A stretch of DNA of 17,610 nucleotides from an uncultured Pseudomonadota bacterium (lineage in GTDB: Bacteria > UBA10199 > GCA-002796325 > 1-14-0-20-49-13). The DNA lies in the NCBI GenBank assembly GCA_964612405.1, contig CAZTCA010000016.1, positions 1 through 17,610 on the forward strand, in the 5' to 3' direction. The notes beneath the pieces are model-generated. The model searched no databases and was not told the DNA's origin. It saw nothing but the letters and a program-made list of their open reading frames with translations. Each line of letters begins with the position of its first letter. Within the stretch, counting starts at the first letter, position 1. A program made the translations under genes and the position numbers. Shown piece by piece: positions 14,521-16,866 of this stretch.

Positions 14521-15363
14521 ATGAGGATACGTCCGTTAATTACAGAACGCATAGCAAAAGTCATGTTACTGCTGGCATGTGCATCGGCTGTTGCAGCGCT
14601 TGTATTCGTGATCGGCTTCGTTCTTTTGGGAGGCTTCAGATACGTAACATGGGCATTCCTTACGGAACCGATACTCGACATGGGCCGTGCTGGCGGAATT
14701 CTTCCGGCTATAGTGGGTACTATTCTTATCGTATTTGTTGCGATAGGAATCGCTGCTCCGCTCGGTATTGCAAGCTCTATCTATCTGGCAGAATATACCC
14801 GCGAGGGACGTGTTACCGCAGTCATAAGATTCGGCATTAATTGTCTGGCCGGTGTTCCGTCCATTATATTCGGCTTATTTGGTTTTATATTGTTCGTTGT
14901 GATACTCGGGTTTGGCTGGTCGATCATATCCGGCGGTCTCTCTCTTGCCGCAATGATCCTCCCAACGATAATCCGCACATCCGAAGAAGCCCTCAAACAG
15001 GTACCTTCCGAATACCGCGATATTGCGGCGTCGCTGGGTGCGACGCGCTGGCAAGTTGTCACTAAATCCGTTCTACCGTACGCTTTGCCGGGTATTCTCA
15101 CGGGGGTAATACTGGGGATCGGGCGGTCGATCGAAGAGACGGCTGTTATAATATTTACGGCGGGTTCCGCCGTGCAGATGCCTAGATCACTCTTAGATTC
15201 AGCACGCACGATGTCAGTTCATTTCTATATACTGGCACGAGAGGGAATATCGAACGACAATGCATATGCGACAGCTGCTGTTCTCATATGTACAATACTT
15301 ATTATAAACATCAGTGCGTACACGCTTATGCACAGGCTCATGAGAGGGAGGCGGTCGGCATGA
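14521..15363 (+). CDS. pstA: Phosphate ABC transporter permease
   Basis: 280-aa polytopic permease with EAA loop (EEALKQVPSEYRDIAASLGATRWQVV). Starts 1 nt after the pstC stop. Confidence 0.92.
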   Translation: MRIRPLITERIAKVMLLLACASAVAALVFVIGFVLLGGFRYVTWAFLTEPILDMGRAGGILPAIVGTILIVFVAIGIAAPLGIASSIYLAEYTREGRVTAVIRFGINCLAGVPSIIFGLFGFILFVVILGFGWSIISGGLSLAAMILPTIIRTSEEALKQVPSEYRDIAASLGATRWQVVTKSVLPYALPGILTGVILGIGRSIEETAVIIFTAGSAVQMPRSLLDSARTMSVHFYILAREGISNDNAYATAAVLICTILIINISAYTLMHRLMRGRRSA

Positions 15364-16118
15364 ACGACGTCTCCAAAATATCGGTAAAAGATCTCAATGT
15401 TTCATTCGGAGACACGCAAGCGCTCAAAAACGTTTCCCTTGAGATAAAATCAAATGAGGTGCTTACAATCATCGGACCGGCAAATTCCGGCAAGTCATCT
15501 CTATTGCTCTCAATCAACAGGATGATAGACAGAATCGAAAATGTGAGTTTAAGCGGCAGCATTCTTATAGACGGATGCAACGTGTACGCCGGCCAAAACG
15601 TAGAGAACCTGCGTCGGCGCGTTGGAATGGTCTTCGCGCTTCCTATATCGCTTCCTATGAGCATACGCGATAATGTTCTCTTCGGCATAAGGATGCTGCG
15701 GCACGTCGCAAGGCATGACGGCGATGTGCTGGTAGAAAAGACACTTCGTGCGGCCTTTCTTTGGGATGAGGTCAAGGACAGGCTCAATTCGCACGCCTTC
15801 AACCTTTCCGGCGGACAGCAGCAACGATTATGTATCGCAAGAACGCTGGCTGTAGGACCCGAAATAATTCTTTTTGATGAGCCGTGTTCCGGACTTGATC
15901 CGATATCCACCGGCAAAGTGGAGGAGGCCATTCGACTGCTTGCGCACGAACAGACGATCGTGCTCGTAACGAACAATACTAAACAAGCTGCACGCGTGGG
16001 GGATAGAACGGCGTTTCTTCTTATGGGAGAACTGGTCGAAATTGACGAAACACATAAGATATTTACATCTCCGGCCAATAGTCGAACAGAAGAATATGTG
16101 ACAGGGAGATTCGGTTGA
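15360..16118 (+). CDS. pstB: Phosphate ABC transporter ATP-binding protein, paralogue 1 (non-canonical Q-loop and H-loop)
   Basis: 252 aa from ATG at 15360 (ATGA overlap with the pstA stop). The ORF-track N-terminal extension is rejected. Walker [10 protein letters not shown], canonical signature LSGGQQQRL, Walker [10 protein letters not shown]-loop Gln is replaced by Ala (VGMVFALP, A93). H-loop His is replaced by Asn ([10 protein letters not shown]205). Confidence 0.9.
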
Positions 16119-16119
16119 T

Positions 16120-16866
16120 ATGAAAGCCATTGATTGTCAAAAATTGAACCTGTTCTATGGCTCATTTCATGCGCTGAAGGATGTCGATTTGAATATTATG
16201 GAAAAACGTATTAGCGCGCTTATTGGTCCGTCGGGATGCGGCAAATCAACGCTTCTGCGCGTATTTAACAGGATGAACGACCTGATTGCGAGCGTTCGCA
16301 CAACGGGCAATGTGGAGGTTCTAGGCCAAACACTTTCAGAGATGGATATATTGCAGTTAAGAAAGTCGGTGGGAATGGTCTTTCAAAGGCCCAATCCGTT
16401 CCCGTTGTCGGTATATGAAAATCTTGTCTATGGTATGCGAATTCATGGAATAAGACAAAGATCGACCCTGACTGAAGAAGTGGAACGGTGCCTCGAAAGT
16501 GTCGGACTTTGGAAGGAATTGAGGGACCGGCTAAAATCGAGCGCTCTTGCGCTTTCCGGCGAACAACAACAGAGACTTTGCATTGCAAGACTCTTGGCCG
16601 TCAAGCCGGAGATACTCCTCATGGATGAGCCGTGTTCGGCGCTTGACCCGATAGCGACGGCCCGGATTGAAGAGTTGATGCAGGATCTGAAAAAGGATTA
16701 TACGATAGTTATCGTTACACACAACATGCAGCAGGCGGCGAGGGTTTCAGAGGATTGCGGTTTTATGCTGCTTGGCGATCTTGTCGAATTCGGCAAGACG
16801 ACACAAATCTTTACGAACCCAAATGACAAACGAACAGAAGACTATATCAGCGGAAGATATGGCTGA
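16120..16866 (+). CDS. pstB: Phosphate ABC transporter ATP-binding protein, paralogue 2 (degenerate signature motif)
   Basis: 248 aa. Canonical Walker [11 protein letters not shown]-loop VGMVFQRP, Walker [10 protein letters not shown]-loop [10 protein letters not shown]. The ABC signature reads LSGEQQQRL (E148 instead of the second Gly). Confidence 0.92.

Follow-up and report, generated by a model that had tools for sequence, protein, structure and literature searches.

A symmetric homodimer of nucleotide-binding domains (NBDs) is the textbook arrangement in type I importers, e.g., Pst, Mal, and His. E. coli PstSCAB (PDB codes 9k3s, 9k3x, and 9k3y) has a single pstB gene and two identical consensus pockets. 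Head-to-tail binding of ATP was seen directly in E. coli PstB, where Walker A/B came from one monomer and LSGGQ came from the other, and an E179Q trap mutant of this protein was described (PMC12976172).

Reviews present the degenerate ATP site as a hallmark of the ABC exporters (PMC7756269, PMC3971661). Two different NBDs are combined in the degenerate-site heterodimeric systems TM287/288, TmrAB, TAP1/TAP2, BmrCD, PatAB, EfrCD, MsRv1273c/72c, CFTR, and Pdr5. The core defects lie in one NBD and the signature defect lies in the other, which means that one composite pocket is hit and the other one is consensus (PMC7756269, PMC3971661). Among importers, RbsA and NupO of B. subtilis have one non-consensus pocket of two (PMC11466899).

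Two adjacent pstB genes between pstA and phoU are found in Firmicutes, i.e., those of PstB1/PstB2 in E. faecalis and PstBA/PstBB in B. subtilis. The E. faecalis paralogues are functionally non-equivalent (PMC12096839). Both Firmicute PstBs are canonical, as the original prediction had assumed, and those of E. faecalis have the same motifs as E. coli PstB. The original prediction also knew of no degenerate PstB pair as a described feature of phosphate importers; no prior description of one was found in the literature outside subscription journals. Such a pair is reported here from the window, which is the whole stretch of 17,610 nucleotides that was analysed.

Gene Organization of the pst Locus

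Both pstB genes sat in a pstS–pstC–pstA–...–phoU operon, and this gene order was repeated in loci L001 and L008. The genes of the window were assigned as follows.

10307..11755 (-), phoR-like sensor histidine kinase, divergent from the pst operon (HisKA/HATPase-type sequence and a position beside the response regulator and the pst operon)
11755..12444 (-), phoB-like response regulator (receiver domain and winged-helix sequence in the open reading frame list)
12877..13683 (+), pstS, phosphate-binding lipoprotein (TIGR02136, 236.6 bits, cut-off 206.6)
13683..14519 (+), pstC, permease (TIGR02138, 294 bits, cut-off 196)
14521..15363 (+), pstA, permease (TIGR00974, 269.5 bits, cut-off 193)
15360..16118 (+), pstB1, NBD of 252 aa with a deviant core and a consensus signature (best family match TIGR00972)
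16120..16866 (+), pstB2, NBD of 248 aa with a consensus core and a deviant signature (TIGR00972; E = 6.5e-89 to E. coli PstB, 9k3x)
16882..17547 (+), phoU (TIGR02135, 203 bits, cut-off 130)

The pstS start was likely the ATG at 12877, not 12832; the N-terminus from 12877 read MFLLKKIF...AMSC with a ribosome-binding site upstream, and the same gene encoded 268 aa in locus L001. The stop codon of pstA overlapped the start of pstB1 (ATGA), and pstB2 started 1 nt past the pstB1 stop codon.

The two PstBs were 46% identical to each other. PstB2 scored 374.7 bits and was above the TIGR00972 equivalog cut-off of 343.2, whereas PstB1 scored 312 bits and fell below it, with TIGR00972 still its best match by a wide margin. 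In the source annotations, PstB1-type proteins were called "phosphate ABC transporter ATP-binding protein", and most named PstB2-type proteins carried the suffix "PstB". The operon type and the fold were the same as those of E. coli PstSCAB; E. coli PstB and PstB2 were approximately 60% identical in the alignment, and the AlphaFold2 monomer model of PstB1 (pLDDT 87) had a TM score of about 0.9 (0.89–0.91 to the E. coli PstB chains 9k3s_C and 9k3x_C). The model predicts that PstB1 folds as a complete PstB-like NBD.

ATP-Site Motifs of PstB1 and PstB2

The motifs of PstB1 were located at the following positions.

15474..15500 (+), Walker A, with Lys45 and Ser46 kept and the clade-specific changes S41A, G42N, and C43S
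15636..15638 (+), codon GCG for Ala93 in the Q-loop VGMVFALP, in place of Gln
15804..15824 (+), signature LSGGQQQ, consensus
15879..15881 (+), codon of the catalytic Glu174, retained in the Walker B motif IILFDEP
15891..15893 (+), Gly178 of the D-loop (CSGLD; SALD changed to SGLD)
15972..15983 (+), N205-N-T207-K208 of the H-loop (VTNNTKQ), with Asn205 (AAC, 15972-15974) in place of His

The corresponding motifs of PstB2 were as follows.

16225..16251 (+), Walker A, consensus
16384..16386 (+), Gln89 of the Q-loop, consensus
16552..16572 (+), signature LSGEQQQ, with Glu148 (GAA, 16561-16563) in place of the second Gly
16627..16629 (+), catalytic Glu170, equivalent to E. coli Glu179
16720..16722 (+), His201 of the H-loop (VTHNMQQ), consensus

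The original prediction had described Ala93 and Asn205 beside a canonical LSGGQQQ in PstB1, and LSGEQQQ with a consensus core in PstB2. Every one of these residues and coordinates was reproduced by translation and a codon check. Further PstB1-specific changes that had been missed were S41A, G42N, C43S, F98L in the Q-loop region, A178G, M207T, and Q208K. The coupling region and Q-loop of PstB1 kept the invariant residues P95, L98, P99, M100, I102, R103, and N105. In the alignment to E. coli PstB (PDB code 9k3x), Glu148 of PstB2 was aligned with Gly157 of LSGGQ.

Conservation of the Pair Among Relatives

Canonical residues in orthologous loci, which would point to strain-specific drift and had been named in the original prediction as a refuting outcome, were looked for, and the prediction withstood this test. 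The PstB1-type motif set was present in all 120 nearest homologues (64–72% identity), which, where named, came from metagenome-assembled genomes labelled Acidobacteriota, Eisenbacteria, Deltaproteobacteria, and Pseudomonadota. The PstB1 substitutions were likewise fixed in a second set of 120 homologues centred on Planctomycetota/Phycisphaerae. The H-loop VTNNTKQ was found in 115/120 members of this Planctomycete-centred set and in 119 of 122 aligned sequences, which were 120 homologues plus the PstB1 and PstB2 of the window. Rare H-loop variants among PstB1-type representatives were VTNNVKQ, VTNNLRQ, VTNVNYQ, and VTNNVAQ. In each of the 120 nearest PstB2 homologues, the second Gly of the signature was replaced by an acidic residue, and none had LSGGQ; their core was consensus, with single conservative variants only (one Q-loop VGMVFHRP and one H-loop VTHNMAQ).

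The arrangement of the two genes was explored in 119 metagenome loci, which were retrieved by a DNA pattern coding VTNNTKQAA, and H-loop conservation in this sample was therefore given by construction. Ala93 occurred in 102 of 103 PstB1-type genes, LSGGQQQ was kept in 110/111, and DEP was present in 115/115, all of which had kept the P-loop Lys together with the Asp and the catalytic Glu of Walker B. Position 42 of Walker A was variable inside the clade (N, G, R, S, A, K, or H). Gly178 was found in 95% of the PstB1 clade, whereas Ala was found in 100% of the canonical PstBs. Among the 95 loci with a readable partner, the downstream-adjacent gene was of the PstB2 type in every case and a PstB2-type partner was never upstream; the intergenic gap was mostly between -4 and +20 nt. 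Position 4 of the partner signature was Glu in 85, Asp in 10, and Gly in none of the 95, and the core was consensus throughout, including the Q-loop Gln (95/95). The original prediction had asked whether G148E is fixed; what is fixed is an acidic residue at this position. The complementary deviations held in 95/95 pairs.

For comparison, all 71 single-pstB genome loci had xSGGQQQ together with the canonical Gln of the Q-loop and His of the H-loop, with both Gly residues invariant. This control set consisted of the loci left over from a scan of genome contigs with the PstB1 alignment, in which the search peptide was GGQQQRLC, and it was dominated by canonical PstBs. The scan gave 80 loci, including 6 of the PstB1 type (5 with a readable PstB2 partner), 2 intermediate pairs, and 1 single dead PstB; as these loci were selected via a generic peptide, the counts give no prevalence. 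Approximately 10 of the top 150 representatives at 50% identity were of the PstB1 type, which itself shares approximately 50% identity with canonical PstB, and a natural PstB1–PstB2 fusion was not found among these representatives. Because the Gln, the His, and both Gly residues were invariant in the 71 controls and the same deviations were present in every relative examined, the deviations are not due to chance. The complementary pair recurs in approximately 100 loci of several bacterial phyla. Of the lineages named to date, most are uncultured groups of sediment, groundwater, and soil.

Divergence and Covariation of the Two Clades

In a neighbour-joining tree without an outgroup, the PstB1 type (41/41) and the PstB2 type (40/40) were each monophyletic. 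Nearest-neighbour bootstrap supported the PstB1 type in 187/200 replicates, whereas the value for the PstB2 type was only 135/200. The clade-defining residues of PstB1 were in Walker A, the Q-loop, the D-loop, and the H-loop, together with one flanking strand position (I202L). The clade-defining invariant of PstB2 was signature position 4, with four lesser differences at R90 and in the helical subdomain (128, 129, and 134). The residues that define the clades thus lie almost entirely in ATP-site motifs.

The pairwise distances of the partners were correlated (r = 0.82, 71 loci). The divergence of PstB1 (0.40) was only slightly faster than that of PstB2 (0.36), which indicates that PstB1 is under purifying selection. 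According to the mutual information of 95 pairs, uncorrected for phylogeny, PstB1 position 94 (Q-loop +1) and PstB2 position 147 (signature position 3) ranked 2nd of 21,488, and Walker A position 42 with PstB2 position 147 ranked only 362nd. The covariation between positions 94 and 147 is suggestive only; along with the co-divergence, it lends indirect support to a physical heterodimer on the transmembrane subunits. Taken as a whole, the pair is probably best explained as an ancient paralogue set that was co-inherited in tight linkage across several bacterial phyla.

Discussion

The PstS–PstC–PstA importer is probably driven by an obligate heterodimeric ATPase, to which each of the two genes contributes one half and which would have one catalytic and one non-catalytic site. 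An obligate PstB1–PstB2 heterodimer is the best reading of the sequences because only the heterodimer would give one fully consensus ATP site. A PstB2 homodimer would have an acidic signature in both pockets, and both pockets of a PstB1 homodimer would be without the Gln and the His. From these sequences we infer heterodimer formation, the identity of the active pocket, and the nucleotide occupancy of the deviant pocket.

The pockets were assigned according to the head-to-tail geometry of the NBDs. The PstB2 core (Walker A/B, Gln89, and His201) and the LSGGQQQ of PstB1 would form a consensus pocket that hydrolyses ATP, and the claim that this other site is fully consensus agrees with both its core and its signature. 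The PstB1 core and the PstB2 signature would form the deviant pocket, in which the Q-loop Gln and the H-loop His are missing and an acidic side chain would lie where the signature backbone normally contacts the gamma-phosphate of ATP. The deviant pocket is expected to be non-catalytic because the Gln and the His are lost and the signature carries this acidic side chain. It probably still binds nucleotide, since the P-loop Lys/Ser and the Walker B Asp–Glu are kept, and its role may be structural, allosteric, or regulatory. With one pocket non-catalytic and serving another role, the pump would spend approximately 1 ATP per cycle. Some residual hydrolysis in the deviant pocket is conceivable given the strict retention of the catalytic Glu174. 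Moreover, the acidic signature residue may keep this pocket from ever closing on ATP; the picture of a pocket that binds but does not hydrolyse ATP would then be wrong in detail.

All deviations had been placed on one composite site. The head-to-tail arrangement known from E. coli PstB (PMC12976172) supports this placement for the Q-loop, H-loop, and signature substitutions. In view of the D-loop, the claim may be slightly overstated. Going by structures of ABC NBD dimers, A178G of PstB1 probably faces the consensus site and not the deviant one.

The likeness to degenerate-site heterodimeric exporters that had been drawn was upheld by the same logic of complementarity (PMC7756269, PMC3971661). 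The pair has the genetic make-up of an NBD heterodimer with one degenerate site, i.e., two distinct co-encoded NBDs with the core defects in one and the signature defect in the other. However, the NBDs of the exporters and channels are fused to type IV/V transmembrane domains, whereas the Pst system here is a type I importer that depends on a binding protein and has free-standing NBDs. PstB1 keeps the catalytic Glu, which is often lost in the degenerate sites of exporters; unlike in the exporters, it has lost the Q-loop Gln, and the signature of its partner carries a conserved acidic residue. In Pdr5, a return to the canonical motifs is reported to cause inactivation. RbsA and NupO belong to another ABC class with both NBDs fused in one chain, and what they have lost is the Lys of Walker A and residues of Walker B, not those of the Q- and H-loops. 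The pair also differs from the canonical PstB homodimer and falls outside the Firmicute type of tandem PstBs, because the Q-loop and H-loop of PstB1 and the signature of PstB2 deviate and the two complementary-deviant proteins form separate clades.

A more specific version of the heterodimer, in which the deviant pocket is a purpose-built regulatory or latch site and not merely a dead ATP site, is tentative and rather unlikely. Glu/Asp148 of PstB2 would occupy the usual place of the gamma-phosphate and could pair with Lys208 or the P-loop Lys45 of PstB1, and the pocket would close without ATP, with ADP, or with free cytoplasmic phosphate. Lys208 and Glu/Asp148 co-occurred, and neither was present in L017 or L033, the two intermediate pairs, with Lys208 being part of the metagenome search pattern; a few homologues had Met, Arg, Tyr, or Ala at position 208. 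A salt bridge between Lys208 and Glu148 is not established. If the latch were true, the conformational cycle and, via PhoU/PhoR, the Pho-regulon signal would be directly sensitive to phosphate/adenylate status, and transport would cost one ATP.

It is unlikely that both pockets are catalytic, with the Asn/His, Ala/Gln, and Glu/Gly exchanges being a tolerated kinetic tuning and two ATP being spent per cycle. PstB1 did keep its P-loop Lys as well as the Asp and the catalytic Glu of Walker B in 115/115 genes, and a different catalytic geometry might in principle be rebuilt with the conserved Lys208 and the partner Glu148. However, none of the 71 canonical PstBs departed from the Gln, the His, or either Gly, and loss of the H-loop His reportedly removed nearly all hydrolysis in HlyB H662A and in the H-loop mutants of MalK and HisP. 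Furthermore, CFTR loses its ATP-dependent function when the second signature Gly is replaced by an acidic residue. At CFTR G551, ATP-driven NBD closure is blocked by Asp and Glu but not by Lys and Ser, and repulsion of the gamma-phosphate was proposed as the cause (PMC4178940). G551D and G551E are at exactly the second Gly of LSGGQ, as is the acidic residue of PstB2; the CFTR mutations are pathogenic and lie in the catalytic pocket, whereas the PstB2 residue is naturally fixed and would lie in a pocket that also lacks the Gln and the His.

PstB2 homodimers might also power transport, with PstB1 as an accessory or regulatory protein (e.g., in PhoU/PhoR signalling) and not as a stoichiometric half of the motor, which we regard as improbable. 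Tandem PstBs need not be strict 1:1 partners, since in E. faecalis, where both are canonical, genetics showed that the second PstB is essential and the first is only accessory and replaceable by excess PstB2 (PMC12096839). The equivalog cut-off, which was passed by PstB2 and not by PstB1, fits an accessory PstB1 as well. However, both pockets of a PstB2 homodimer would contain Glu/Asp148, and the equivalent CFTR G551D/E blocks ATP-driven dimer closure. The near-invariant LSGGQQQ (110/111) and the invariant coupling region would be expected only if PstB1 docks on the permease and completes the pocket of its partner. Strict gene adjacency and co-divergence with PstB2 also argue against a merely accessory PstB1. 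Drift in a single strain or an early pseudogene of a redundant duplicate, to which nothing but the PstB1 score below the family cut-off pointed, is hardly credible and was rejected, given the identical motifs in hundreds of sequences from several phyla, a PstB1 approximately as slow as PstB2, an intact frame, and a complete NBD in the AlphaFold2 model.

The heterodimer with one consensus and one deviant pocket would thus be a natural, ancient, and widespread variant of Pst, which bears on the ATP count per transport cycle and on the purpose of a non-catalytic pocket. The system is practical owing to its small soluble NBDs and the recent cryo-EM framework of a homologue. The pair is also a matter of annotation, as proteins of the PstB1 type miss the equivalog cut-off for PstB and carry generic names. 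That one ATP per phosphate is an energy-saving adaptation in these lineages is speculation. PhoU and PhoR were proposed to sense PstSCAB via its alternative conformations, and PhoU was reported to interact with PstB (PMC12976172). Pho-regulon signalling may therefore be touched as well, because an asymmetric dimer would give PhoU two non-equivalent PstB partners.

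Organization of the Phosphate Transport Operon

A complete phosphate-specific transport operon was located on the + strand at 12.8–17.5 kb of the window, and its genes were arranged as follows.

Response-regulator and histidine-kinase pair, - strand, divergent, just upstream of the operon
pstS, + strand, first in the operon (TIGR02136)
pstC, + strand (TIGR02138)
pstA, + strand (TIGR00974)
15360-16118, + strand, pstB1, first of two PstB-like genes between pstA and phoU
16120-16866, + strand, pstB2, second PstB-like gene
phoU, + strand (TIGR02135)

The end of pstA overlapped the start of pstB1 (ATGA, 15360-15363), and 1 nt separated the pstB1 stop codon from the start of pstB2, a spacing typical of translationally coupled subunits of a single complex. 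The ORF mechanically called for pstS begins at 12832, and the ATG at 12877 is the likely true start (MFLLKKIF..., lipobox AMSC, RBS aaggagga); the identical gene was annotated at 268 aa in L001. Just 5' of pstS, TAACAAATTTCTAACAATTCC (12784-12805) contained two TAACAA units 11 bp apart, and a 77%-identical copy adjoined the phoB start (12459-12480). Both are putative Pho boxes serving the divergent promoters of phoBR and pst. The phoB–pstS intergenic region also held a tiny ORF encoding the hydrophobic 20-aa peptide MKKILLSILLILLPTSAEKK (12539-12601, + strand), which was preceded by a strong RBS (aggaggagg).

Motifs of PstB1 and PstB2

Sequence motifs of PstB1 (252 aa) and PstB2 (248 aa)
Walker A: PstB1, GPANSGKSS; PstB2, GPSGCGKST
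Q-loop: PstB1, VGMVFALP (Ala93, GCG, 15636-15638); PstB2, VGMVFQRP
Signature: PstB1, LSGGQQQ; PstB2, LSGEQQQ (Glu148, GAA, 16561-16563)
Walker B: PstB1, IILFDEP; PstB2, ILLMDEP
D-loop: PstB1, CSGLD; PstB2, CSALD
H-loop: PstB1, VTNNTKQ (Asn205, AAC, 15972-15974); PstB2, VTHNMQQ

Translation and a codon-by-codon check reproduced all residues and coordinates of the original prediction. The two proteins were 46% identical. PstB2 scored 374.7 bits, above the PstB equivalog cut-off of 343.2, and PstB1 scored 312 bits, under the cut-off, with PstB nonetheless its best family. The AF2 model of PstB1 was a complete nucleotide-binding domain (NBD; pLDDT 87), the nearest solved structures of which were E. 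coli PstB 9k3s_C and 9k3x_C (TM 0.89–0.91, 48% identity). According to the alignment of PstB2 with 9k3x (E = 6.5e-89), Glu148 matched the second Gly of E. coli LSGGQ, and Glu170 matched the catalytic Glu179.

Conservation and Co-occurrence of the Two Types

Strain-specific drift, under which orthologues would carry canonical residues, was not borne out, and the motifs were fixed in all three homologue sets. The motif set of the window PstB1, including GPxxSGK[ST], the Q-loop [VI]G[MI]V[FY]... and VTNNTKQ, was present in 120/120 of its nearest homologues (64–72% identity), the named sources of which were MAGs of Acidobacteriota, Eisenbacteria, Deltaproteobacteria and Pseudomonadota. A second set of 120 proteins, seeded from the planctomycete PstB1 of locus L012, had the same motifs, with Ala, rarely Ser, at the Q-loop position and VTNN in the H-loop. 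LSGGQ was found in none of the 120 nearest PstB2 homologues (68–78% identity); signature residue four was Glu in 119 and Asp in one, and the core was consensus apart from two conservative variants (one Q-loop VGMVFHRP and one H-loop VTHNMAQ).

Metagenome contigs were then scanned with a DNA pattern coding VTNNTKQAA, which yielded 120 loci (L086–L205), 119 of them with a recognisable PstB1-type gene. Traits outside the search pattern were fixed in these genes, namely, Q-loop Ala (102/103), LSGGQQQ (110/111) and DEP (115/115). The gene directly downstream was of the PstB2 type in 95/95 loci with a readable signature, mostly across a gap of -4 to +20 nt, and such a partner never lay upstream in the metagenome loci. 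The partners retained the Q-loop Gln (95/95) and the H-loop His (91/92 readable). Signature position 4 was Glu in 85, Asp in 10 and Gly in 0 of the 95, and position 3 varied freely (L 50, G 19, P 11, A 7, D 4, E 2, M 1, S 1). As a control, 71 single-pstB loci from a genome scan dominated by ordinary PstBs were inspected, and xSGGQQQ, Q-loop Gln and H-loop His occurred in 71/71. Five loci of the genome scan had a complete pair with the same complementarity; the pair-bearing loci listed were L007 and L012 (Planctomycetes), L008 (WOR-1) and L058 (Acidobacteria), with L017 and L033 as intermediates. A PstB1-type gene was also present in L006 (Desantisbacteria), where the contig stopped short of any partner gene.

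Evolution and Clade-Defining Residues

Both types were monophyletic in the NJ tree built from 161 sequences: PstB1 with 41/41 (44/44 when three intermediates are counted) and PstB2 with 40/40. The PstB2 clade was nested within the canonical PstBs, and the PstB1 clade lay across the midpoint root. The nearest neighbour of each PstB1 or PstB2 was of its own type, and this held in 187/200 and 135/200 bootstrap resamples, respectively. Mean divergence was 41% within the PstB1 clade and 37% among all canonical PstBs sampled; because its diversity matches theirs, the PstB1 clade must be old. Across 71 complete pairs, PstB1–PstB1 and PstB2–PstB2 distances were correlated (r = 0.82). The divergence of PstB1 was only slightly above that of PstB2 (0.40 vs 0.36), indicating that purifying selection acts on PstB1, which is inherited together with its partner.

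Columns conserved inside a clade and different from canonical PstB were considered clade-defining. For PstB1, they were found in Walker A (S41A, C43S and a variable position 42), the Q-loop (Q93A, F98L), the D-loop (A178G), the H-loop (H205N, M207T, Q208K) and one flanking strand position (I202L). For PstB2, the sole invariant difference was Gly to Glu/Asp at signature position 4, with four lesser differences at R90 and at 128, 129 and 134 of the helical subdomain. Hence, lineage-specific change of both proteins was essentially confined to ATP-site elements. PstB1 retained the PstB-specific C-terminus and the invariant residues flanking the Q-loop (P95, L98, P99, M100, I102, R103 and N105), which make up the groove that accommodates the coupling helix of the permease.

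Lys208 of PstB1 (15981-15983), three residues past the H-loop position, was clade-specific and near-invariant, and the canonical residue is Gln. It co-occurred with the acidic signature residue of the partner, both being missing from L017 and L033, and the two could form a cross-interface salt bridge. Separately, mutual information was computed for 21,488 inter-protein column pairs on 95 pairs (L086–L205 plus the window), with values uncorrected for phylogeny. The second-highest value linked the residue directly following the Q-loop Ala in PstB1 (position 94) to the third signature residue in PstB2 (position 147). This signal is consistent with both residues lining one pocket.

Proposed Heterodimer and Its Mechanism

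The Q-loop and H-loop sit in the same ABC monomer as Walker A/B. In E. coli PstSCAB, Walker A/B from one PstB copy and LSGGQ from its partner together hold each ATP; PstA carries one of the two PstB subunits and PstC the second (PMC12976172). Given this head-to-tail arrangement, PstB1 would contribute Ala93 and Asn205, and PstB2 would contribute Glu148, to one shared pocket, and the claim that the substitutions converge on one composite site of an asymmetric heterodimer was supported as far as sequence reaches. The other pocket, composed of the PstB2 core and the PstB1 LSGGQQQ, would be intact. A PstB2 homodimer would have an acidic signature in both pockets, and Gln and His would be missing from both pockets of a PstB1 homodimer. 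One working site would thus be assembled only in the PstB1·PstB2 heterodimer, which would explain the perfect signature of PstB1 and the perfect core of PstB2.

The PstB1 D-loop change presumably faces the consensus pocket of the partner, and D-loops in heterodimeric exporters are said to carry cross-talk between pockets. Replacement of the equivalent second signature Gly of CFTR (G551) by Asp or Glu, and not by Lys or Ser, abolished ATP-driven NBD closure, which the authors ascribed to gamma-phosphate repulsion (PMC4178940, PMC2151620). The deviant pocket (PstB1 core plus PstB2 signature) is very likely non-catalytic, and its closure on ATP may differ from the normal one. Nucleotide binding has probably been preserved, given that PstB1 retains the P-loop Lys/Ser as well as the Walker B Asp-Glu. 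We infer the heterodimer, its catalytic asymmetry and its nucleotide occupancy from sequence.

Variant Loci

Intermediate NBD pairs were observed in L017 (Syntrophobacteraceae, 4896-6518) and L033 (Anaerolineae, 4977-6566). In their first NBD, the Q-loop Gln was replaced by Ala or Thr and the His was kept (VPHSIQQ, VPHNVQQ); the partner signature LSLGQQQ was changed at position 3 and not at position 4. Degeneration in these pairs may stand at an earlier stage or at a parallel one. In L008 (candidate division WOR-1, MEUE01000001.1, 25-7170), a canonical pstA-pstB-phoU was directly followed by pstS-pstC-pstA-pstB1-pstB2-phoU; therefore, the asymmetric system can coexist with a canonical one. In L075 (Bacillota MAG JAEWRS010000527.1, 1897-2658), pstA and phoU flanked just one pstB, and no second copy was adjacent. 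In its product, the Walker A Lys was lost (GPAGSGITT), DRP replaced DEP, Asp replaced the Q-loop Gln and the H-loop context was APHTVQQ. Either this is a dead ATPase with a partner elsewhere, or the operon is decaying.

Comparison with Known Systems

The predicted likeness to exporters with one degenerate site was supported by the sequences, the logic being that of TM287/288, TAP, BmrCD, PatAB, CFTR and Pdr5. Among importers, RbsA and NupO have a degenerate half in fused NBDs (PMC11466899), and DppD/DppF is heterodimeric with neither ATP site called degenerate (PMC12136057). The only functional study of tandem PstBs, from E. faecalis, states that there was no prior work on tandem pstB paralogues (PMC12096839). 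Both E. faecalis proteins have motifs identical to those of E. coli (PMC12096839), and this duplication, with two canonical members, therefore differs from the present one. In full-text literature outside the subscription journals, no account of a degenerate-site PstB pair was found, in agreement with the original prediction, which knew of no such feature described for phosphate importers. The degenerate-site principle itself is already known from exporters; what appears to be new is a degenerate-site NBD heterodimer in a type I phosphate importer. The pair, a conserved and ancient set of paralogues that occurs in several phyla, is most plausibly an obligate PstB1·PstB2 motor, asymmetric in that one pocket is catalytic and the other is not; it is notable to ABC specialists and directly testable.
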